In this document: positions 4,586 through 30,583 of the stretch, in pieces
Layout: each line of letters begins with the position of its first letter
Numbering within the stretch: the first letter of the stretch is position 1
Assembly (NCBI GenBank): GCA_016192685.1
Contig: JACPTS010000001.1
Location: 225,710 to 289,709 of the forward strand
DNA length: 64,000 bases
Source: Candidatus Harrisonbacteria bacterium
GTDB lineage: Bacteria > Patescibacteriota > Minisyncoccia > UBA6257 > 02-FULL-45-10c
Direction of reading: 5' to 3'
Position numbers and translations under genes: made by a program
The notes under the pieces: generated by a model
What the model was told of the DNA's origin: nothing
Database searches by the model: none
Seen by the model: the letters and a program-made list of their open reading frames with translations, nothing else

Positions 4586-6247
4586 ATGCCCGATCTTATT
4601 TATCAAATTTACAAAAATTTTACGGAGTTAGAACGGCGAATATTTTTACTTACGCTGTTAATTTTCATAATGTCAGGAACTATGTGGCTAACACTAATGT
4701 TTTATTCGCGCACCGTAACAGTGCCTGCCGCCAGCAGTCTGTATAAAGAAGGGCTAATCGGCCAGCCGATTGCGGTTAATCCAATTCTAGTTGGCGCCAA
4801 TGATGCTGACCGCGATTTAATTGAACTCCTATTCAGCGGCCTTATTGATCTCACGGAAAGTTACAAAATCAGCGAAGGCGGCCAATTATGGAAAATAATT
4901 TTAAAAGAAAATCTCCGCTGGAGCGACGGCAAGCCGCTAACCAGTGACGATTTAATTTTTACCATTGACAGCATCCAAAATTCCGAAAGCCAATCCCCCC
5001 TCTTTTTAACCTGGCAAGGGGTCGTGGTTGACCGATTAAGCGAGCGGGAGGTAGAATTTACCCTGCGAACGCCCTACGCGTTCTTTCTGGACAATTTAAA
5101 GGATTTAAAAATAATCCCGAAGCATATTTTCAGCGTTATCCCATTGGAAAATTTCCGCCTTTCTAATTTTAATTTGGAACCGGTGGGAAGCGGGCCATAT
5201 AAATTCGCGTCATTGGAAAAAAGGAAAGACGGTTTTATCACCGACTATCGCTTAACTGCCAATGAATATTACCCACTTCCAAAACCGCATATTGAAAATT
5301 TTGACTTGAAATTTTACCAAAGCGCCGCCGATCTTATTAACGCGTTTAACCAGAAAAAAATTGACGGCTTTGGCGGGCTTAATCCCAAAAACACTGAAGA
5401 ATTAAAATTAAATAATGTCATTTTGGAAAAAATCATTCCCAGATATTACGCGATTTTCATAAATAAAAATACCAGCCCCAGCTTGGAAGATAAAAATGTA
5501 ATCGCCGCTTTAAATCTGGCCGTTAATAAACAAAAAATTATAGAAGAGGTTTTCGGCGGCCGGGCCTTGGTCATTAATGAACCTCTTTTGCCGACTATTG
5601 AAGGCTACGACCGGTCCGCTGACCCGGGATGGGAATTTTCAATAGAAAAGGCGGCGGATATTTTAGACAAGTCTAAGTGGATGCCCAATCCGGAAACCGG
5701 CATTCGCGGGAAAAAAATCGGCAAACAAAGCCATTCTTTAGAATTTTCCTTGGTAGTCCCGCAAATACCCTTTCTTAATGAAACCCTGAAAATCATAGCC
5801 GAAGACTGGAAAAAAATCGGCGTTCAATTAAATCCGATAATTTTAAACCCGACTGACATTGCCAGCGAATTAATTAAAACCAGAAATTACCAGATGATAA
5901 TTTTCGGAAATATATTAAAAAATAATCCCGATATTTTTTCTTTCTGGCATTCTTCCGAAAGGTTCTATCCCGGATTAAATCTCGCCCTGTATAATAACAA
6001 AAAGGCCGATAATCTGCTGGAATCAATCAGAAAAAATCTTGACGGCGAGTCAAGAAAAAAAGAACTGGGGCAATTACAAAAGCTAATTAGCGAAGACCAA
6101 CCGGCGATATTCCTTTATTCTCCAACCTACCTCTATGTAGCCCCTAAAGATTTTGGCGGTTTTGAGGAACAAACTATTGCCACGCCTTCCGACCGATTTG
6201 AAAATGTTAATCAATGGTATCTGGAAACAACGAGAATTTTTAAATAG
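4586..6247 (+). CDS. extracellular solute-binding protein, family 5 (oligopeptide-binding-like), N-terminal membrane anchor
   Basis: 553 aa with an N-terminal TM segment. SBP_bac_5-like length and motifs (LIDGLIDL..., ...KIIPKHIF). Confidence 0.55.
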   Translation: MPDLIYQIYKNFTELERRIFLLTLLIFIMSGTMWLTLMFYSRTVTVPAASSLYKEGLIGQPIAVNPILVGANDADRDLIELLFSGLIDLTESYKISEGGQLWKIILKENLRWSDGKPLTSDDLIFTIDSIQNSESQSPLFLTWQGVVVDRLSEREVEFTLRTPYAFFLDNLKDLKIIPKHIFSVIPLENFRLSNFNLEPVGSGPYKFASLEKRKDGFITDYRLTANEYYPLPKPHIENFDLKFYQSAADLINAFNQKKIDGFGGLNPKNTEELKLNNVILEKIIPRYYAIFINKNTSPSLEDKNVIAALNLAVNKQKIIEEVFGGRALVINEPLLPTIEGYDRSADPGWEFSIEKAADILDKSKWMPNPETGIRGKKIGKQSHSLEFSLVVPQIPFLNETLKIIAEDWKKIGVQLNPIILNPTDIASELIKTRNYQMIIFGNILKNNPDIFSFWHSSERFYPGLNLALYNNKKADNLLESIRKNLDGESRKKELGQLQKLISEDQPAIFLYSPTYLYVAPKDFGGFEEQTIATPSDRFENVNQWYLETTRIFK

Positions 6248-6330
6248 CCCTCATGGCGGAACTGGCAGACGCGTACGCTTCAGGTGCGTATGGCCGCAAG
6301 GCCGTAGAGGTTCAAATCCTCTTGGGGGCA
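6247..6330 (+). tRNA. tRNA-Leu (anticodon CAG), long variable arm
   Basis: The sequence gccctca.../...tgggggc forms a cloverleaf. The anticodon loop is cttCAGgt. The extra arm is tggccgcaaggccgt. The T-arm is ggttcaaatcc. Confidence 0.8.
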
Positions 6331-6423
6331 CAAAAAAATTATAATTAACTAAATAACTAAAGACAAAAAGACAAACAGACTTAAAATTTAAAAGTCTTTA
6401 GCCTAAAGTCTTAAGTCAAAATA

Positions 6424-8145
6424 ATGATTAGAGCACCCAAAAGAATATTTAGAAAAAAAGCTTCTCCGGAATTAAAAAATAAAGAGGCGATTTTGCGTTT
6501 TGTGCCGCTCGGCGGCTTGGAAGAAATCGGCCGCAATTGTTCCTTTTTTGAATACGGAAACGAAATTGTGATAATGGATGTTGGTATCCAATTCCCGGAA
6601 GAAGAAACTCCGGGAATTGATTACATAATTCCGAATGCCGCTTATTTGGAGCCAAAAAAGAAAAATATCCGCGGCATTATCCTCACTCATGGCCATTATG
6701 ACCACATCCACGCCCTCCCCTATTTAATTGAAAAAATGGGTAATCCGATAATTTATACCGCGGAACTTACTAAGGCTTTAATTGAAAAACGTTTTCAGGA
6801 ATTTCCAAATCTGCCGAAACCAAAAATTGAAATCGTGAAAGACGGCGATCGGGTAACTATTTCGGAGCATTTCACGGCGGAATTTTTTGATATTGAACAT
6901 ACTATTCCGGATGCCATCGGATTTATTCTGGACACTCCGGAGGGAAAAATGGTCCACTTCGGCGACTTTCGGGTGGATCGGGATATTGACGGCAATCCGC
7001 AAAAAATGGAAATTTTTGAACGGCTTGGAAAAATGGGAATCCACACGGTATTTTTAGACAGCACCAATGCGGATATTGATGGAAAGTCTATTCCGGAAAA
7101 ATTAGTAGAAAAAAACTTGGAAAATCTTTTCAAAAATGCCGATGGCCGAGTCATTGTTGCCACCTTTGCATCTCTTCTTACCCGATTGGCGGAAATTATC
7201 AAAATCGCGGAAAAATTAGACCGCAAAGTGGCTCTAAACGGCCGTTCTATGAAAGATAATGTCCAAATCGCTAAAAATCTTGGCTATATGAAATTTAAAA
7301 AAGACCACGTAATTAATATAGAAGAAGTGCATCAATATAAAGATAATAAAATAATGATTTTAACCACTGGCGGGCAGGGCGAACCGAATGCCGGACTGAC
7401 CAAAATCGCCAATGGCGAACATAAAAGCGTCCGTTTGAAAAAAACTGACACGGTTATTTTTTCTTCTTCAGTCGTTCCGGGCAATGAACGGAGTGTCCAA
7501 ACTCTTCAAGACAATATCGCTCGCCAGGTGGCTGAAGTTTATAATTCCAAACTATTAGATATTCATTCCAGCGGCCACTGCCTAAAAGAAGATTTACTGT
7601 TAGTGCTAAAAACAGTTAAACCAAAATTCGTAGTGCCAATTCACGGCTACTATTTTAAACGCTCGGTAGCCGCTAAAATTGCCCAGCAAACCGGCATTCC
7701 CAAAGAAAATGCCATTTTAATGGACAACGGCCAAGTAGCCGAGATTGCCAAAGACGATTTTAAGGTTACCAGCGAACAAATTCCCGCCAATTATGTTATG
7801 GTTGACGGCCTTGGCATTGGAGATGTACAAGAAGTAGTGCTGCGGGACCGTCTAATGCTGGCGGAAGAAGGCATGGTGGTAGTAATTGCCACAATTGATA
7901 GAAAAAGCGGGCGATTCTTGAAAACTCCGGATATTATATCCAGAGGATTCATTTACCTGAAAGAACACAAAGAATTATTAGACGAAATTAGGATAAAATT
8001 AAAATCCATTATCGGAAGAATGCCTCGGCACCAAGAAATAGAGCCGGATTATGTAAAATCTTTAATCCGGGACCAAATCGGCCAACTTTTGTATAATAAG
8101 ACTAAACGGAGGCCGATGATTCTTCCAGTACTTATTGAAATTTAG
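6424..8145 (+). CDS. rnj: ribonuclease J (metallo-beta-lactamase / beta-CASP)
   Basis: N-terminal LRFVPLGGLEEIGRNCSFFEYGNEIVIMDVG and THGHYDHIHALPYL (HxHxDH) motifs. 573 aa. Confidence 0.85.
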   Translation: MIRAPKRIFRKKASPELKNKEAILRFVPLGGLEEIGRNCSFFEYGNEIVIMDVGIQFPEEETPGIDYIIPNAAYLEPKKKNIRGIILTHGHYDHIHALPYLIEKMGNPIIYTAELTKALIEKRFQEFPNLPKPKIEIVKDGDRVTISEHFTAEFFDIEHTIPDAIGFILDTPEGKMVHFGDFRVDRDIDGNPQKMEIFERLGKMGIHTVFLDSTNADIDGKSIPEKLVEKNLENLFKNADGRVIVATFASLLTRLAEIIKIAEKLDRKVALNGRSMKDNVQIAKNLGYMKFKKDHVINIEEVHQYKDNKIMILTTGGQGEPNAGLTKIANGEHKSVRLKKTDTVIFSSSVVPGNERSVQTLQDNIARQVAEVYNSKLLDIHSSGHCLKEDLLLVLKTVKPKFVVPIHGYYFKRSVAAKIAQQTGIPKENAILMDNGQVAEIAKDDFKVTSEQIPANYVMVDGLGIGDVQEVVLRDRLMLAEEGMVVVIATIDRKSGRFLKTPDIISRGFIYLKEHKELLDEIRIKLKSIIGRMPRHQEIEPDYVKSLIRDQIGQLLYNKTKRRPMILPVLIEI

Positions 8146-16286: not shown

Positions 16287-16634
16287 GGGGGTGTAAAGCT
16301 TCGACAATTTATCTTCTATCAGATTTGCAAGCCGAGCTGAATTAACTCGCAAAACTAATTCAAAATAATAAGTGCAAACTTATTCAATCGTCAGCCAGCT
16401 TACGCTTTAGCATAACTGGCCATTGTTCAGCCAAAGCTTGATAGGTTGATAAACAATGTCATTAATCAAGCTCTGCCTTGATAAGCCGAGTGTCAAAGCG
16501 AATCACAATCGGCAAAAGATCTTTGGTATTTTGTTGAATTTTAGCCTTAGATCTTAAACAATAATTCAACTAAGCTTGTAGAAAATTTGATAGTAATAAT
16601 TTGGACGCGGGTGCAATTCCCGCCACTTCCACAA
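16287..16634 (+). ncRNA. ssrA: tmRNA (SsrA)
   Basis: The 5' end gggggtgtaaagcttcgac and 3' end ggacgcgggtgcaattcccgccacttcca form a tRNA-like domain. The internal tag frame is gca aac tta ttc aat cgt cag cca gct tac gct tta gca taa, reading ANLFNRQPAYALA*. Length is about 348 nt. It sits directly after smpB. Confidence 0.85.
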
Positions 16635-20286: not shown

Positions 20287-20916
20287 CTATTTTATTCCCG
20301 CCCGGACATGATCAGTTAATATAGGCGCGGTAGTTTTTCTGGGAAGGATTAAATCCGGCACAAAAATTAAAACTATAGCGCTTAAAATCGCCATTGAACC
20401 GGTAAACAAAAACAGGAAGTTAAAACCGGCAATGGTGGCAATTGAACCGCCAACCAACCCCGCTAAGCCAATGCCCAAACTGACGCTGCTGCTGCTCAAG
20501 GCCCATTCAAAAGCAGTATGTCCTTTATCTAAATGCCTGGATAAAATCGCAGACCAAGATGGTATGTAAAGCGCGAAGCCAATGGCTTTAATAAATTGAA
20601 CCGAATAAACCTGCCAAACTTTTTGAGTTAAAGCAAAACTGAAGCCGGAAATTCCGATAATCAAAAGCCCCAAAACTAGGGCATAAAAATCATCCCGCTC
20701 GCCTGGAGTTTTATCCAAAAAAAGAGAAATGGGAATTTGTAAAATTCCTTTAGCAATCCAGTAAATAGCCGCCAGCACCCCTACCGATATTAAAGTGGCG
20801 CCGGCGATTTCCCGCACTACGAAAATAGAAAATAACGGGTCAATAAAACCCCAACCCGACCATAAAATCAAATCGCTGAAAATGAAAAATCTTACGACTC
20901 TATTTACTGATGGCAT
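20287..20916 (-). CDS. polytopic membrane protein (MFS-like half-transporter)
   Basis: 209 aa with about 6 predicted TM helices. It overlaps the upstream AAA+ gene by 17 nt. Confidence 0.4.
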   Translation of the reverse strand: MPSVNRVVRFFIFSDLILWSGWGFIDPLFSIFVVREIAGATLISVGVLAAIYWIAKGILQIPISLFLDKTPGERDDFYALVLGLLIIGISGFSFALTQKVWQVYSVQFIKAIGFALYIPSWSAILSRHLDKGHTAFEWALSSSSVSLGIGLAGLVGGSIATIAGFNFLFLFTGSMAILSAIVLIFVPDLILPRKTTAPILTDHVRAGIK

Positions 20917-23437
20917 AAATTAATTCTTCTCCTTTTAAGTCTAATAAAACCTTGCCGCCGCGGTCAATTTCCTGTTTTAAAATTTTCTCAGCCAAAACAC
21001 TGCGAATCCTATCCGAAATCACCCCCCGAAGCGGCCGGGCGCCGAACGCCGGGTCATAGCCCCATTCGGCGATTTTCTTAACCGCTTCATCGGAAAAATC
21101 TATTTCAATCCCGTGGCTTTCTTTCAAATCGGCGGCTAAATCTTTCAATAAAATTTTAGTTACCGCCACAATATCTTCCGGCGATAAACCCTTAAAAACA
21201 ATAATTCCGGAAAAGCGGTTTAAAAGTTCCGGCCGGAAATATTCGGTTAATTTTTTCTTTAGAGTTTCGCTTACTTCCGCCATGGTTTTCCCGGCTTCAA
21301 TTTCCGACTTAATAAAATTGGAATGGGCGTTGCTGGTCGCAATAATAATAGTATTTTGGAAATCCACCACTCTTCCGGTATTATCCGTTAATCGGCCGTC
21401 ATCAAAAACCTGAAGAAAAAGATTCAGGAGATCCGAATGAGCTTTTTCAAATTCGTCTAAAAGAATTAAGCTGTAAGGTTTTTGTAAAACCGCGTCAGTT
21501 AAGCCGCCGCTGACTATCCCATCCGGAGAGCCGATTAACCGGAAAATGCTTTGCTTATCCTGATATTCCGTCATATCAAAACGAATCATTGCTTCTTTAG
21601 AGCCGAATTGAATTCCGGCTAAAATCTTGGAAAGTTCGGTTTTACCGACGCCGGTTGGACCGACAAAAAGAAAAGCGGCGATCGGTCCGCCTCTGCGGGA
21701 AAGACCGCTCCGATATTCCCGAAGCGCCCGGGAAACCGCTTTCACCGCCTCTTCCTGGTCAATTAAACGCTGATGAATAAGCCGTTCCAAATTCAAAAGT
21801 CTCTGCGCCTCTTCTTCTTTGGCTTGCCGGAGAGGAATATTGACCCGGCGCTGAGCAATATCAATCACATCATCGCCGTTAAGCACTTTATCGCCTTTTT
21901 CTTTGGCATCGGAAAGCGCTTCTTTTAAAAGTTCTTCCGCGCTGGATGGCAGGAGCTTATCGCGGAAATACTTTGAAGCCAGGAGAACCGCCTGTTTAAT
22001 GGCGGCAAAAGTTATTTTCATCCGGTACTGCCTTTCTAAAATAATGCTGTCATAAACTAACAGCTTAACGGCATCATCAACAGAAATTTCCTGAATCGGA
22101 ATATTTTCAAAAACTTTGGCAAAATCAATTTGAGATTCAATGGTTTGCTTGTATTCCCTGGGATAAGTAGCGCCGACCACGGAAAAGGCGCTGGAGGCAA
22201 AAGCCGGCAAAAAAACATCAGCGGCATTGATTCCGGAACGGCCGGAGGTTTTCACCAGATTGTGAATGTCCGGAACATATAAAATTATATTTCCGGCCTG
22301 AACGATTTCCTCAATAATCTTAGTTACCCGCGCCTGAATTTCCCCCAATTGCCCAACGCCCGCCATTAAAGTTCCCACTCTAAGAAGCACTAAACGTTTG
22401 TCAAAAAGTTCCGGCGGCACTTCGTCTTTGGTAATTTTATAAGCCAGATGATTTACTAAAGTTTCTTTTCCGGAACCGGGGTCGCCGACCAAAAGCACGT
22501 TCGGTTTAGTCGGCCGGGAAAGCACATCCAGCATGCGGTCATATTCCTGCTGATGGCCGATTAAAAAACCGATTTTCTCCAGACGGGCGTAATCAGTCAA
22601 ATCCTCGCCATACTGGTCTAAAGTCGGCGTCGGCCGCGCGCTCCACGAGCGATTCATAACCCGATGGCGGATTTTATAGGGCCGATAAGCAAATCCGCCG
22701 ATGGCAGCCGGCATCCGCTTTAGCCAGCCAAAAGTTTCTTTATAGCGGCTAAAAATTAAAGAATTTTGCAAATCCCCCGGGTCAATATTAAAAAGATGGA
22801 GCACCCTTTGAATAGCGCTGCTTTCGCAATAATTCAAAGCGGCAAATAAATCTTTCGGCTCAATAAATCGGTCATCAAAAAGCAAAGCTTGTTCCAATGA
22901 CAATTTAGAAATTTTTTCAATTTCCGCCAACAATCTTTTTTTTCTATCAGATGTCTCGTCGCTGTATTTTTTATCCTGCAGGGTTTCTTCTAAAAGTTCT
23001 TCCACTTTATCCCGGATTTCTTTTAAGTTAAGGTCCATTCTTAACAATCCTTCTTGGATATCTTTTCTTTCCAAAAGCCGCTTTAAAATAAAAAAATAAA
23101 AATTACCGCCTATCAAAAGAGCCCGCTCAAAAGCATATTCTAAAATAGCAAAACTGGAAGGAGTAAAATAGCGCGCCAAATTTACTTCCCCTCCTAAAGG
23201 ATCTTTTACCAGCGACCGGTCCGCTTGGCCAAAATACTTAGCCCGGTCCATTAAAATTAAAAATAACAAGGCGCCGGTCCAAAAAACCGATGGCACGTCA
23301 GAAATCAAAAAAGTAAAACAGGCGGCAATTAAAATTCCGTAAGTCGCGTAAAAAACCACCCGGACAAAAAGCCGGCCGGCATGAGTCATTTCCAGCCTGG
23401 GATCATGGAAATACAATGTAAAATTTTTCACTGCCAT
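20900..23437 (-). CDS. ClpA/ClpB-family double-AAA+ ATPase with N-terminal transmembrane segments; first nucleotide-binding domain non-canonical
   Basis: NBD2 has a canonical Walker A (GPTGVGKTELSKILA), a canonical Walker B (LILLDEFEKAH) and a sensor region. NBD1 has Walker A GDPGSGKE and Walker B ILYVPDIHNL, both deviating from consensus. The N-terminal 60 aa are hydrophobic. Confidence 0.7.
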   Translation of the reverse strand: MAVKNFTLYFHDPRLEMTHAGRLFVRVVFYATYGILIAACFTFLISDVPSVFWTGALLFLILMDRAKYFGQADRSLVKDPLGGEVNLARYFTPSSFAILEYAFERALLIGGNFYFFILKRLLERKDIQEGLLRMDLNLKEIRDKVEELLEETLQDKKYSDETSDRKKRLLAEIEKISKLSLEQALLFDDRFIEPKDLFAALNYCESSAIQRVLHLFNIDPGDLQNSLIFSRYKETFGWLKRMPAAIGGFAYRPYKIRHRVMNRSWSARPTPTLDQYGEDLTDYARLEKIGFLIGHQQEYDRMLDVLSRPTKPNVLLVGDPGSGKETLVNHLAYKITKDEVPPELFDKRLVLLRVGTLMAGVGQLGEIQARVTKIIEEIVQAGNIILYVPDIHNLVKTSGRSGINAADVFLPAFASSAFSVVGATYPREYKQTIESQIDFAKVFENIPIQEISVDDAVKLLVYDSIILERQYRMKITFAAIKQAVLLASKYFRDKLLPSSAEELLKEALSDAKEKGDKVLNGDDVIDIAQRRVNIPLRQAKEEEAQRLLNLERLIHQRLIDQEEAVKAVSRALREYRSGLSRRGGPIAAFLFVGPTGVGKTELSKILAGIQFGSKEAMIRFDMTEYQDKQSIFRLIGSPDGIVSGGLTDAVLQKPYSLILLDEFEKAHSDLLNLFLQVFDDGRLTDNTGRVVDFQNTIIIATSNAHSNFIKSEIEAGKTMAEVSETLKKKLTEYFRPELLNRFSGIIVFKGLSPEDIVAVTKILLKDLAADLKESHGIEIDFSDEAVKKIAEWGYDPAFGARPLRGVISDRIRSVLAEKILKQEIDRGGKVLLDLKGEELIYAISK

Positions 23438-23790
23438 AAATTCGTTAAAATATTATAAATTACCAAGATGGGAATCGCCGCCCAAAGCAAAAATAAACTC
23501 AGGGCAACCACTAAAAAAATCCCGTAAACCGCCAAAGCCGTAAAAATTCTAGCGGTCCGAAAAATAAATCCCCAAAGATAGCCAATAGCGCTGTAATCCT
23601 GGTAAAGCGGCTGCAGCCAATTTTTAACCGTAATCCGAAGCGCAAAAATCCTGTCTAATCGCTCCAAAATGTTATAGGCCCAATGAATGGCCTTCAAAAA
23701 TCCGTAAAAATACCAATGCCGGAAAAAATCCAAAACCCGCCTGCCTAAGTGGGTTAAAAGGTAAACTAAGGAAAGATTGCTGATTTCCAT
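23428..23790 (-). CDS. small membrane protein (120 aa), translationally coupled to the AAA+ gene
   Basis: Three predicted TM helices. A 10-nt overlap with the downstream gene. It starts 18 nt after the RT stop. Confidence 0.4.
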   Translation of the reverse strand: MEISNLSLVYLLTHLGRRVLDFFRHWYFYGFLKAIHWAYNILERLDRIFALRITVKNWLQPLYQDYSAIGYLWGFIFRTARIFTALAVYGIFLVVALSLFLLWAAIPILVIYNILTNLWQ

Positions 23791-23808: not shown

Positions 23809-24801
23809 TTAGATTTCAAAATTCTTTACTATAATCCGACGAAGCCTATACGCATTTCCGTGCTGTATGAGTCCCAAATAAGAATTCAGGGTTTCTTTTG
23901 TTGGGTGTTCTTTTATTCTCTTCATCATTCTTCTTTTGGCGATGGTTCGTAAAATTCGGTGGTCAGGAAAATTCACCCAGCCAAGAAAATCCACTCCAGA
24001 ATAGAGGGTTTTAATAAATACTTTATTAGGATGCAATTCTAGCTCTAATTTATTTTGTAAAAATTCTTGTATTTGAGGAATTAAATTTTCCAGCCAATTT
24101 CTATTTTCAGAAAACACCACAAAATCATCAGCGTAGCGGATATAATATTTAACTTTTTGTTGATGCTTCATAAACTGGTCAAATTCATTCATATAAATAT
24201 TCACCAAAAGCTGCGAGGTGAGGTTACCGAGCGGCAAACCGATTCCCGCCTTAGTGGAAGAAAAACTATCAATTACTTCATCAAGTAGGCGTAAAATATC
24301 CAGATCTGGAATATAAACTTGTAAAATTCGTTTCAAAACAATATGGTCAATGCTGGCAAAGAATTTCTTAATATCACACTTTAATATCCAGCAGGTTTTA
24401 GTATTATTTTGGCTGACCTTATAAGCAAGCGAACGAAAGCGGTTAATAGCTTTATGAGTTCCCTTGTTTAGGCGGCAGGAATATGAATCAGCGATAAATA
24501 CTCTATCAAAAAATGGATAGAGTATCCGATAAATTGCGTGATGTAATAGGCGGTCTCGGACACTCGCCTTATGGATATTACGCGGCTTGGGGTCGCAAAT
24601 ATTAAAGGCCTGATAACCGCCATGAGTATAAGTATGGTTGCTAAATTCTTGGTGAAGCGATAGGATATTATCCATTAAGTTAAAAGAGAATTCCTGAACG
24701 TCTTGTTTTCTTCTTTTTCCTCGCACAAACTCTTTCCACGCTTCTAATAAATTCTCTGCGCTAATTATATCTTCAAATTTATGAGTCAATTGAATTTTCA
24801 T
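23809..24801 (-). CDS. DGR-type reverse transcriptase
   Basis: RT motifs are present: YIRYADDFVVFS (YxDD) and the DGR-diagnostic motif-4 variant LPLGNLTSQLLVNIYM, which is (I/L)GxxxSQ rather than QGxxxSP. 330 aa. Confidence 0.9.
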   Translation of the reverse strand: MKIQLTHKFEDIISAENLLEAWKEFVRGKRRKQDVQEFSFNLMDNILSLHQEFSNHTYTHGGYQAFNICDPKPRNIHKASVRDRLLHHAIYRILYPFFDRVFIADSYSCRLNKGTHKAINRFRSLAYKVSQNNTKTCWILKCDIKKFFASIDHIVLKRILQVYIPDLDILRLLDEVIDSFSSTKAGIGLPLGNLTSQLLVNIYMNEFDQFMKHQQKVKYYIRYADDFVVFSENRNWLENLIPQIQEFLQNKLELELHPNKVFIKTLYSGVDFLGWVNFPDHRILRTIAKRRMMKRIKEHPTKETLNSYLGLIQHGNAYRLRRIIVKNFEI

Positions 24802-24920
24802 AATTTTTCTTCTAATAAGACCCCCCCCAACGGAATTTAATAATTATTACAAAATTAATCGCTGCATACAAAATCTGGCAGGAGTTTTTTATTCATTTTC
24901 CGAAAACTTCTCGTTACACA

Positions 24921-25163
24921 TTGGGGTCTAAAATTGATTCTTTATTTATTGAAACTATTGAATTGATTTTTCAAGCAAGTTATTCAAGTAAAGAACAAAA
25001 GAGTGTTTACTTTCAAAAATCATCTTCTAAATTTGACTTGCTTAAATTTTTCTTACAAGTTTCATGGGAAATTAAAACTTTGGATAATAAAAAATATATT
25101 ATCCTTTCAGAAAAATTAAATGAGGTTGGAAAAATATTAGGCGGATTGATTAAACAGCTATAA
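24921..25163 (+). CDS. avd: Avd-like accessory protein (four-helix-bundle / IVS-protein family), opposite strand to the RT
   Basis: The C-terminal half, FLQVSWEIKTLDNKKYIILSEKLNEVGKILGGLIKQL, matches Avd/23S-IVS proteins. The frame is open upstream to 24819 and there encodes ...YKIWQEFFIHFPKTSRYTLG (Avd helix 1-2), but with no canonical start codon. The track start is TTG at 24921. Confidence 0.5.
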   Translation: MGSKIDSLFIETIELIFQASYSSKEQKSVYFQKSSSKFDLLKFFLQVSWEIKTLDNKKYIILSEKLNEVGKILGGLIKQL

Positions 25164-25170
25164 AAACAAA

Positions 25171-25192
25171 CTCCCCCGCAACGCGGGGAGAG
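25171..25192. terminator. GC-rich hairpin (ctccccgc...gcggggag) flanking the TR and after the avd stop
   Basis: The hairpin is followed by tttgttttta on the minus strand, which places a terminator directly after the TR transcript end. Confidence 0.4.
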
Positions 25193-25205
25193 AATGAAGC
25201 GATTA

Positions 25206-25323
25206 GCAGAAGACGAACTGGTTGTCTTCGTTCCAGACGTTGTCGGGGTTGCCGTAGTTGCTGTTCAGCCACCGTCCGTTGTCATCGTGCTTCACGTTGA
25301 ACAGCTTCAAGTTGCCGTCCGAA
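25206..25323 (-). repeat. DGR template repeat (TR)
   Basis: A 118-bp repeat homologous to 25613-25730. On the minus strand it is rich in AAC codons (..GGC AAC TTG AAG CTG TTC AAC GTG AAG ... AAC AGC AAC TAC GGC AAC CCC GAC AAC ...). All 17 differences from the VR are at TR adenines. Confidence 0.85.
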
Positions 25324-25545
25324 TCAGTAATGTATAGCACGCCTTCCATTCCACTGCTCCTTGAATGCTCTCGGAGCTGCATCTAATTCGGCATCTTATA
25401 TGCCCTAGCATACTATACCAAGTAGCTTCATTTTTTAGGAATTAAAATTTTTAATCCCGGAGTTCAACGGTCTAAAGCCGTAACCGTAGACGCATTATTT
25501 ACTATCCAAAATTATACTAACAATTAAAATCTGATTTGAAAATAG

Positions 25546-25581
25546 AAATGCCTCGCAAGAGCAAGCTCTTGCGAGGCATTT
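25546..25581. promoter_or_regulatory. perfect 16-bp stem / 4-nt loop hairpin about 30 nt 3' of the VR (candidate DGR target-recognition hairpin and/or target-gene terminator)
   Basis: aaatgcctcgcaagag-caag-ctcttgcgaggcattt. It lies 25 nt downstream of the target stop on the minus strand. Confidence 0.5.
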
Positions 25582-25606
25582 TTCCAGCGGTCCAGCAGAC
25601 CCGAAG

Positions 25607-26266
25607 CTACTTGCAGAAGACGAACCGGTAGACTCCGTCCCAGACGAAGTCGGGGTCGCCGTAGTAGCTGCTCAGCCACCGTCCGCTGACATCGTGCCCC
25701 ACGCTGAACAGCCTCAAGTAGCCGTCCGAAGCAGCGATTGGCTCCATCGCGACGACAAGCCATTCGCCGTAAGGCTGGTCCGAATACTGCAGACGAAGCT
25801 GAGGACCGACCTCTACCGGACACTTCTTCAGTCCGCGCTCTTCTGCGCGCTGGATGATCTCCTGAAAAGGAGCTTGATCCTTGCCAGTCAGCTCCTTGAC
25901 TGAGACCTTGACCAGTTCCACGGTTTCCTGGTTCGCCGCCGTAAAGGCTGACTTACCAAGAATGTCGTTCGCCCAGTCGCTAATCCTGTATCCGCCAACC
26001 TTGAGAGCATGGCGGAAGTCATCAGCGGTCTTGAGGTCGGTGCCGAGCTTGATGGTTTTCCAGGTTGGGAAGCCACATCTCTCAGCCCCTTTCTTTACGA
26101 AGGGATTGCGGTGCTCAATCAAGGCTTGGACGTGGCGCGAGTTCAATGCCCCACGCTTCATCTGTCCCCTGATTTCCTTCGTTTGCGCATCCAGCTTCTC
26201 ATACATCTCAAGGAGCTGGTCTGAGGTCGGCTTTTGATCCGAACCCACGACGATTTTTTTGGTCAT
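25607..26266 (-). CDS. DGR target protein (219 aa) with C-terminal VR-encoded ligand-binding (C-type-lectin-like) region; no N-terminal signal peptide evident
   Basis: The ORF ends exactly at the VR (..VFCK*). Its N-terminus, MTKKIVVGSDQKPTSDQLLEMYEK..., is hydrophilic. GC content is much higher than the window average. The other ORFs listed in this region are alternative frames of the same GC-rich DNA. Confidence 0.75.
   Translation of the reverse strand: MTKKIVVGSDQKPTSDQLLEMYEKLDAQTKEIRGQMKRGALNSRHVQALIEHRNPFVKKGAERCGFPTWKTIKLGTDLKTADDFRHALKVGGYRISDWANDILGKSAFTAANQETVELVKVSVKELTGKDQAPFQEIIQRAEERGLKKCPVEVGPQLRLQYSDQPYGEWLVVAMEPIAASDGYLRLFSVGHDVSGRWLSSYYGDPDFVWDGVYRFVFCK
25613..25730 (-). 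repeat. DGR variable repeat (VR) at the 3' end of the target gene
   Basis: It encodes ...SDGYLRLFSVGHDVSGRWLSSYYGDPDFVWDGVYRFVFCK*. It differs from the TR at 17 positions, for example AAC>TAC/AGC/GAC/TTC, AAG>AGG/GGG, GAA>GGA and CAG>CGG. Every difference is at a TR adenine and none at any other base. Confidence 0.85.
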
Positions 26267-26365
26267 CGCCGTATCTCCTTTGGTTTTTGGATTTAAGGTA
26301 CATCAACTCTCGCGCCTTGCGGGAATTAAAATAATGATAGCATATTTAGTGCTATTCTGTCAAGC

Positions 26366-30510: not shown

Positions 30511-30511
30511 G

Positions 30512-30583
30512 TGTCCCCGCGTGGAATTGAACCACGATCTCAGCCTTCGGAGGGCTACGTTCTATCCGTTGAACCACGGGGAC
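30512..30583 (-). tRNA. tRNA-Arg (anticodon CCG)
   Basis: The minus-strand sequence gtccccgtggttcaacggatagaacgtagccctCCGaaggctgagatcgtggttcaattccacgcggggaca forms a 72-nt cloverleaf. The acceptor stem is gtccccg/cggggac. The anticodon loop is ctCCGaa. Confidence 0.8.

Follow-up and report, generated by a model that had tools for sequence, protein, structure and literature searches.

In the prototype diversity-generating retroelement (DGR), that of Bordetella phage, a complex of the reverse transcriptase (RT) and Avd, together with the noncoding RNA around the template repeat (TR), is necessary and sufficient for the synthesis of cis-primed, adenine-mutagenized cDNA (PMC6182149). That RNA contains a template:primer duplex, an upstream:downstream “cPRT Stop” duplex, RT-binding elements and an Avd-binding stem-loop (10.1101/2023.10.23.563531). 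Handa et al. reported a stem-loop just downstream of the TR in 207 of 278 Avd-type DGRs (PMC6182149; 10.1101/2023.10.23.563531), and upstream of the TR they looked at only 40 nucleotides (nt) in DGRs other than the prototype (10.1101/2023.10.23.563531). In bacteria of the Candidate Phyla Radiation (CPR), 90% of the known DGRs have Architecture B3, TR-(avd)-RT (Wu et al. 2018, PMC5758913), and CPR DGRs form a clade of their own, clade 2 (Roux et al. 2021, PMC8144416). Their targets typically have no transmembrane or other recognizable domains (Roux et al. 2021, PMC8144416), the variable repeat (VR) classes UVR1-6 were left without an assigned fold (Wu et al. 2018, PMC5758913), and the missing signal peptides of CPR DGR targets are a published open question (PMC8144416). 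Here we analyzed a 64-kb stretch, hereafter the window, of contig JACPTS010000001.1 from Candidatus Harrisonbacteria (assembly GCA_016192685.1). The window very likely carries a chromosomal CPR-type DGR of Architecture B3 (target-VR / TR / (avd) / RT), which would work by a mechanism like that of the phage DGR with its RT, bRT. Its TR is embedded in a conserved, covariation-supported folded RNA.

A repeat search and an alignment agreed in placing the TR at 25206..25323 and the VR at 25613..25730, both on the minus strand, where a first-pass annotation of the same DNA had put them. These coordinates delimit a 118-nt core. Homology extends out to 25196-25327 and 25603-25734, respectively (84% identity at an offset of 407), and a gap of 289 nt separates the TR from the VR. 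The VR makes up the last 39 codons of the 219-residue target open reading frame (ORF; 25607..26266, minus strand), so that the second repeat lies inside an ORF. Read on the minus strand (TR 25323-25206, VR 25730-25613), the core repeats differ at 17 positions, all of which are TR adenines (10 A>G and 7 A>T), while all 84 non-adenine positions are the same in both. The first-pass annotation had thus been right about the number of differences, their restriction to adenines and the codon changes that it listed; tabulated by TR base, the mismatches of the core fall on adenines only and are not spread over the four bases. With 34 A, 33 C, 31 G and 20 T in the TR core, half of whose adenines (17/34) are changed, the hypergeometric probability that all 17 mismatches hit A by chance is 1.7e-11. 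An additional A>C difference at TR position 25324, immediately 5′ of the core, may count as an 18th adenine change.

Non-adenine mismatches are confined to the outside of the core, at either end of the homology. On the 3′ side they start right at the stop codon (TGC AAG TAG in the VR, TGC TAA TCG in the TR), which is the position where the distinction between an initiation of mutagenic homing (IMH) element and its IMH* counterpart is expected in a DGR. In the reading frame of the VR, 32 of the 34 TR adenines occupy codon positions 1 or 2, and AAC occurs nine times among the TR codons. From TR to VR, 15 codons are recoded, with no synonymous change, and a stop codon can be reached by adenine mutation from two AAG codons only. 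Adenine-restricted transfer of information from the TR to the VR has thus occurred at this locus. Searches of the 64-kb window by blastn with the TR and by tblastn with the target found no further VR copy. A 59-residue ORF over the TR (25203-25382, minus strand) was rejected as a gene: it has no family match and overlies conserved RNA helices.

The RT gene (23809..24801, minus strand) encodes 330 residues that match Pfam RVT_1 (8.6e-24), and its product contains the motif 4 sequence GLPLGNLTSQ, of the form [LIV]GxxxSQ, and the YADD motif. These two features had led to its first-pass designation as a DGR-type RT, which the comparison with solved structures bears out. Among all PDB sequences, the best match was 8ub7_A (328 residues; E 1.3e-42), with a pairwise score of 150 bits, compared with at most 77 bits for the group II intron and retron-type RTs in that database. 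We identify 8ub7_A as bRT because its residue numbers (D138, I181, G182, Q187, D215 and D216) agree with those given for the Bordetella phage enzyme (10.1101/2023.10.23.563531). The catalytic and SQ-motif residues of the window RT align with those of bRT. Judged by sequence similarity, the closest solved relative of the window RT is therefore the prototype DGR RT.

The first-pass annotation had called the DGR complete. The RT, TR, VR and target are indeed present; the accessory variability determinant gene, avd, had been overlooked, and it has no canonical start codon, so that completeness is not fully secure. The plus strand, running toward the TR, has an 80-residue ORF (24921-25163) that is recognized by Pfam bAvd (1e-9) and NCBIfam DivGenRetAVD (3.2e-12), starting at profile position 30 only. 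Its frame is open upstream as far as 24819, with the conserved N terminus starting near 24837-24843, and the extended frame aligns with the whole NF033474 profile (positions 1 to 104; 63.8 bits; E 1.5e-17). We thus annotate avd at 24819..25166. At its upstream end (24813-24851, plus strand), the frame opens after TAA TAA with GAC CCC CCC CAA, which contains a run of eight C, and the corresponding PPP motif is conserved at this place in most relatives.

A number of observations weigh against a functioning DGR at this locus. Avd is indispensable in the prototype DGR. The window Avd scores 63.8 bits, short of the 80 that NCBIfam sets as its cut-off, and no ATG, GTG or TTG precedes the conserved Avd N terminus, the first such codon being TTG 24921. 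The promoter and terminator calls around the cassette, whose coordinates are given below, are consensus matches and are no commoner than in shuffled sequence. In addition, the exact target protein occurs on nine contigs, and the six places that we retrieved come from six sequencing runs (series SRR121134xx and SRR43434xx). Three of these contigs span the cassette and are 100% identical to the window over 3.3 kb, the remaining three stop close to the TR and are 100% identical over their 1.4 to 1.6 kb, and all six have the same VR. There was no VR diversification at the consensus level among the six contigs, in an exact-match look-up and with assemblies that hide minority alleles. The 90% protein cluster of the target has a single member.

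The reading that draws most on these points is that of a real DGR that is now inactive or nearly so, with its VR fixed after past diversification and its Avd lost or truncated through loss of the start codon. A start at TTG 24921 would cut about 26 residues, which match profile positions 1-29, and the identity of the VR and of the overlapping cassette DNA holds across two run series. The start-codon argument is countered by the lineage: the avd frame is open and conserved through its N terminus, which would be unexpected for a dead gene, and a canonical start is absent from 13 of the 67 avd genes of the lineage in our start-codon survey, which suggests noncanonical initiation rather than repeated independent decay. 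Translation of the window avd from ATA or ATT within 24843-24851, the candidate starts, is thus plausible. The identity of the VR sequences is weak evidence on activity because the look-up returns identical proteins by construction and consensus assemblies are blind to minority VR variants. Moreover, the RT, the target, the 34 TR adenines with their nine AAC codons and every RNA helix described below are intact. We consider present inactivity a real possibility, though less likely than not. Three Logan contigs, L004, L005 and L006, break a few hundred bases past the target gene, near the TR, and the TR/VR repeat is probably the cause of the break.

To describe the template RNA, we aligned, for 35 cassettes, the TR together with the 150 nt that precede it and the 60 nt that follow it, and folded the alignment with RNAalifold. 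Conservation was strong outside the TR itself. Two elements emerged on the minus strand: a structured 5′ domain (25332..25432), defined by conservation in the 35 loci, RNAalifold and covariation controls, and a 3′ element (25160..25200), defined by alignment, fold and covariation, which consists of the 3′ strand of helix P1, hairpin P5 and a U-run. P1 is a long-range helix, AAUGAAG(C):(G)CUUCAUU, in which 25432-25425 pairs with 25200-25193 (3′ strand, GCUUCAUU); it connects sequence lying about 100 nt before the TR with the linker immediately downstream of it. P2, of 12 bp (25418-25407 with 25343-25332), encloses the hairpins P3 (25404-25400 with 25394-25390) and P4 (25377-25373 with 25360-25356, plus 25370-25369 with 25364-25363). 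Directly after P1 comes P5, a GC-rich hairpin (25191-25185 with 25177-25171) followed by UUUUGUUU, and this U-run overlaps the stop codon of the oppositely oriented avd.

The fold is supported by covariation. Compensatory double changes occur in 25 of the 39 RNA pairs, and standard pairing was found in 95.6% of the sequence-pair cells, compared with 85.2% in column shuffles, none of 500 of which reached the observed value; pairing fell to 52% or less once the partners were slid by one to three columns. P2 has compensatory changes in 10 of its 12 pairs, and P3 and P4 also covary. In P1, 96.7% of the cells pair, with compensatory changes in 3 pairs (7 cells), and the window P1 has a compensatory extension, GAAGC:GCUUC. 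The minimum free energy fold of the window sequence by itself recovers P2 to P4.

Scanning for the RNA motif and then searching with an nhmmer profile, we confirmed 80 more instances of the RNA in metagenome contigs; the 32 motif matches in IMG/VR all proved spurious. No homolog of the window target family was detected within the locus retrieved for 37 of the 51 loci with RNA, RT and Avd, showing that the RNA goes with the RT/Avd machinery and not with the target. In an independent set of 74 loci, the exact sequence CTTCATT of the P1 3′ strand was present 204 to 262 nt downstream of the 5′ motif in 33, followed by a hairpin and TTTTGTTT; the chance expectation for this heptamer anywhere in the search window is about 4%. 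Rfam 15 contained no family matching the TR region at either the gathering or a permissive threshold, its sole signal being generic hairpin noise on the VR-proximal terminator, and we found no published description of this RNA.

The same conservation could be ascribed to transcription signals: the block 5′ of the TR would be a promoter that does not belong to the template RNA, and the hairpin that follows the TR would be no more than a terminator shared with avd. The consensus ACTTCAAAAAAATGAAGATACTTGGTATAG resembles −35 and extended −10 boxes, many relatives have, by inspection, TTCAAA-16-TGGTATAA, a spacing suited to a sigma-70 promoter of the extended −10 type, P5 with its U-run looks like a textbook intrinsic terminator, and the compensatory changes in P1 are few. 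However, the putative −10 box lies inside P2, that is, among the pairs with the most extensive compensation, and in some loci TATA is changed to TGCA with the matching change on the 3′ strand of P2. The window has no −35-like box and yet keeps all helices, covariation extends to P3 and P4, and the partner strand of P1 recurs at a constant spacing in independent loci whose targets differ and is extended in the window. The covariation of P2 led us to reject the promoter interpretation of the 5′ block, and we regard this account as a whole as quite improbable. The template RNA of the DGR type dominant in CPR thus now has a covariation-supported secondary structure, which can be tested against the recent cryo-electron microscopy model of the phage DGR ribonucleoprotein.

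Compared with the BPP-1 DGR (mtd-avd-TR-brt), the window cassette has an RT homologous to bRT, an Avd, adenine-specific mutagenesis and a hairpin after the VR. The RNAs also share a TR bracketed by an upstream:downstream duplex and a stem-loop just 3′ of the TR. They differ in layout. The window avd follows the TR and is encoded on the other strand, and about 45 nt of noncoding RNA (linker, P5 and U-run) separate the TR from the avd stop codon, whereas the prototype has an essential spacer, Sp, of 140 nt. The large structured domain of the window RNA, P2 to P4, is 5′ of the TR, whereas the prototype spacer with the primer and the RT/Avd-binding elements is 3′ of it, and the upstream strand of the bracketing duplex is about 100 nt before the TR in the window but within 20 nt in the prototype. 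With the 40-nt upstream limit of the published survey, P1 and most of the 5′ domain would be missed. Finally, the window host is a cell rather than a phage, and its target is not a tail fiber.

By analogy with the phage system, the window DGR would operate as follows. A TR RNA of roughly 300 to 350 nt would be transcribed from the minus strand, in the order leader, 5′ domain with P2 to P4, TR, the strand that pairs back to form P1, P5 and U-run. The RT-Avd complex would bind this RNA, copy the TR into cDNA and misincorporate opposite the 34 template adenines, and the cDNA would then replace the VR, recoding 15 of the last 39 codons of the 219-residue protein while keeping the scaffold. The end of the homology at the stop codon and a 16-bp hairpin after the VR would identify the VR as the recipient and the TR as the donor. 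The roles of the helices are hypothesized from their positions: P1 brackets the TR like the phage upstream:downstream duplex, the 3′ end of its 5′ strand adjoining the 3′ end of the TR, where a primer would be needed; P2 ends 5 to 8 nt before the TR/VR homology, where a stop of polymerization would be expected and where the prototype has its cPRT Stop; and P5 may correspond to the stem-loop just downstream of the TR. What the sequences show directly is the adenine-specific TR/VR pattern, the genes and their order, the place of the cassette in a lineage of like cassettes and the RNA secondary structure, whereas the limits of transcription, the priming site, present-day activity, the ligand and the cellular location of the target are inferred. 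Pushing the comparison further, we tentatively propose, with somewhat less than even confidence, that B3-type DGRs use a rearranged template RNA in which the 5′ domain of about 100 nt supplies the primer and the structure that binds RT and Avd, and P1 holds this domain to the 3′ end of the TR. P1 would then serve as template:primer duplex, P2 would halt reverse transcription and P5 would double as Avd-binding stem-loop and terminator, and the whole would represent an undescribed RNA family present in many CPR DGRs whatever their target family.

The hairpin after the VR is a perfect 16-bp stem with a 4-nt loop, followed by a T-run (25546..25581, minus strand; 100% complementary in an inverted-repeat search). 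It starts about 21 nt past the end of the VR homology and may serve as the terminator of the target gene, and it is also a candidate for an inverted repeat that aids DGR target recognition. Together with the non-adenine differences that begin at the stop codon, it could give the two repeats an asymmetry of the IMH/IMH* type, but the TR is also trailed by a hairpin, the different one of P5. A hairpin follows the VR in most related loci as well, with differing sequence; no control set was used for this comparison. The VR 3′ flanks of L009, L012, L013, L037 and others contain a long imperfect hairpin of CCTTGG-like units, to which the perfect hairpin at the same place in the window is unrelated. 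Two promoter-like sites were noted on the minus strand by consensus match only: TTGACA-18-TATCAT with a TG (26334..26363), upstream of the target, and TTCAAA-18-TATAAT (25511..25540), which could start the TR RNA.

For a view of the lineage, we scanned one genome per GTDB species, which yielded 297 relatives of the target, and examined 79 loci, almost all of them in metagenome-assembled genomes (MAGs) of Patescibacteria/CPR. An RT homologous to that of the window was present in 35 of these loci and a homologous Avd in 38. In the GTDB loci with RT/Avd the cassette order was invariant, target(+)-TR(+)-avd(−)-RT(+), and in all 51 further metagenome loci the RNA and the RT were on one strand and avd on the other. 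The RTs of the 35 related CPR cassettes are 58 to 70% identical to the window RT in pairwise comparisons, and 526 of the 545 TR/VR mismatches of the related cassettes fall on TR adenines.

With profile models, the RT did not group with group II intron or retron RTs: it scored 141 bits against a cut-off of 300 for the group II intron model (TIGR04416) and 58 against 235 for the retron model (NF038233), and its matches to the NCBIfam models of defense RTs were likewise far under cut-off. Given that the adenine bias is far from chance and recurs in the relatives, that the closest solved relative, bRT, leads by about 73 bits, that an Avd gene is adjacent and that Rfam detected no group II intron or retron RNA (msr/msd included) at the locus, we give virtually no credence to an ordinary partial gene duplication with a chance adenine bias beside an unrelated group II intron, retron or defense RT, for which the one favorable sign is that the highest NCBIfam score of the RT is that with the group II intron RT/maturase model, and we hold this reading to be refuted.

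In its order TR-(avd)-RT, its reversed avd and its CPR host, the DGR has the layout of Architecture B3. The strands, the chromosomal context, the C-terminal VR and the AAC-rich TR are also those of CPR B3/clade 2 DGRs, as is a small target with no recognizable domain, transmembrane segment or signal peptide, and we found no essential difference. The locus is thus an ordinary member of an already known and well-catalogued DGR class, to which by itself it adds one more example of little importance. It is the conserved template RNA and the large target family described below that make the published open questions on CPR DGRs more directly testable. A phage origin was rejected, as the genes flanking the cassette are cellular (ClpB-like, MurB and permeases) and the IMG/VR matches to the RNA motif are all chance matches.

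Forty-four of the 79 target-family loci have no RT within 6 kb, even where the flanking sequence is complete on either side, and in most of the 44 a TR or Avd match is missing too (e.g., L008, L010, L011, L014, L024, L027 and L033). A DGR located elsewhere in the genome might act on such loci at a distance, or they may be fixed “orphan” copies. Outside CPR, the same cassette, target-TR-(avd)-RT, occurs in an Acidobacteriota MAG (L007; CAVSMH010000008.1, a 1.17-Mb contig labelled Bryobacterales) with a background of 61% guanine plus cytosine (GC), which may reflect horizontal transfer.

The target protein is identical to the NCBI hypothetical protein HYY86_01310 of Candidatus Harrisonbacteria. 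In the family alignment, its N-terminal ~65 residues are helical and poorly conserved, and the conserved domain comprises residues ~66 to 219. A word-indexed search returned 733 homologs, all without Pfam domains, and an exhaustive profile search gave 6,572 cluster representatives (50% identity) at E ≤ 1e-3, with 1,734 of them at ≤ 1e-30. By these searches the family is large, and it has no Pfam model or family-level annotation; its longer members contain no informative additional domains. The variable columns of the family alignment are the positions templated by TR adenines.

A C-type-lectin (CLec)-like or formylglycine-generating enzyme (FGE)-like fold had been anticipated for the target C terminus. 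AlphaFold2 gave a confident model (predicted local distance difference test score 87), which resembles C-type-lectin/FGE folds only weakly, both the variable proteins of C-type-lectin fold (Mtd, 1yu0; TvpA, 2y3c) and the FGE-sulfatase domains. Foldseek returned nothing significant for the model in the PDB or in the viral BFVD library. The target has no Pfam or NCBIfam match and no PDB profile match, and these searches assigned it to neither the CLec nor the FGE-sulfatase family. The recoded residues map to the four C-terminal beta-strands of a small domain, whose ligand-binding fold is probably C-type-lectin-like but very divergent.

The first-pass annotation had also found no obvious signal peptide in the target and had asked where the protein acts. 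The window target indeed has no hydrophobic segment, its maximum Kyte-Doolittle mean over 19 residues being 0.97. Its N-terminal MTKKIVVGS resembles the remnant of a signal peptide without a hydrophobic core. About 10% of the sampled family members (26/264) do have a hydrophobic segment. Clear Sec signal peptides are present in P0010, P0008, P0133 and P0178, and P0124 and P0173 have an N-terminal membrane anchor followed by a Pro/Thr-rich linker. In P0008, the N-terminal helical segment of the window protein is placed behind the signal peptide. As some members have such signal peptides or anchors, P0008 among them, extracytoplasmic action of the target domain is predicted for at least a fraction of the family. 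A family with a confident model and a signal-peptide minority provides a handle on where CPR DGR targets act. In some genomes the target domain is repeated in tandem, with two or three copies that form separate genes or one fused protein of 370 to 480 residues (L018, at 6001-7541; L007, L026, L063 and L066; proteins P0002, P0003, P0121 and P0124).

The cassette is bipartite in base composition, the target gene and the TR being GC rich and avd and the RT gene AT rich. The GC content is 56% for the target, 41% for the window, 35% for the RT gene and 26% for avd, and in the lineage 56 ± 5% for the targets compared with 42 ± 6% for the locus background and about 37% for RT and avd. The target exceeds its locus background in 74 of 75 loci, by a mean of about 14 GC points. 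At third codon positions, the GC fraction (GC3) is 0.71 for the target (0.66 outside the VR), about 0.45 for neighboring genes, 0.34 for the RT gene and 0.23 for avd; the GC excess of the target thus sits at synonymous sites. The GC content of the target correlates weakly with that of the host (r = 0.43) and that of the RT gene correlates well (r = 0.80). Adenine mutagenesis was rejected as the cause, as the excess extends outside the VR and the coding strand is not A poor. The GC-rich codon usage of targets inside AT-rich cassettes is thus consistent, and we found no explanation for it.

Directly downstream of the RT gene, a 120-residue ORF (23428-23790, minus strand) has no significant family match and looks hydrophobic. 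It overlaps the start of the ClpB-like AAA+ gene (20900-23437, minus strand) by 10 nt, with no evident link to the DGR, and both genes are found at the same places in those identical contigs that reach that far. The window also contains ordinary chromosomal features, namely, a tmRNA gene (16287-16634) with the tag ANLFNRQPAYALA, tRNA-Leu(CAG) at 6247-6331 and tRNA-Arg(CCG) at 30511-30583.

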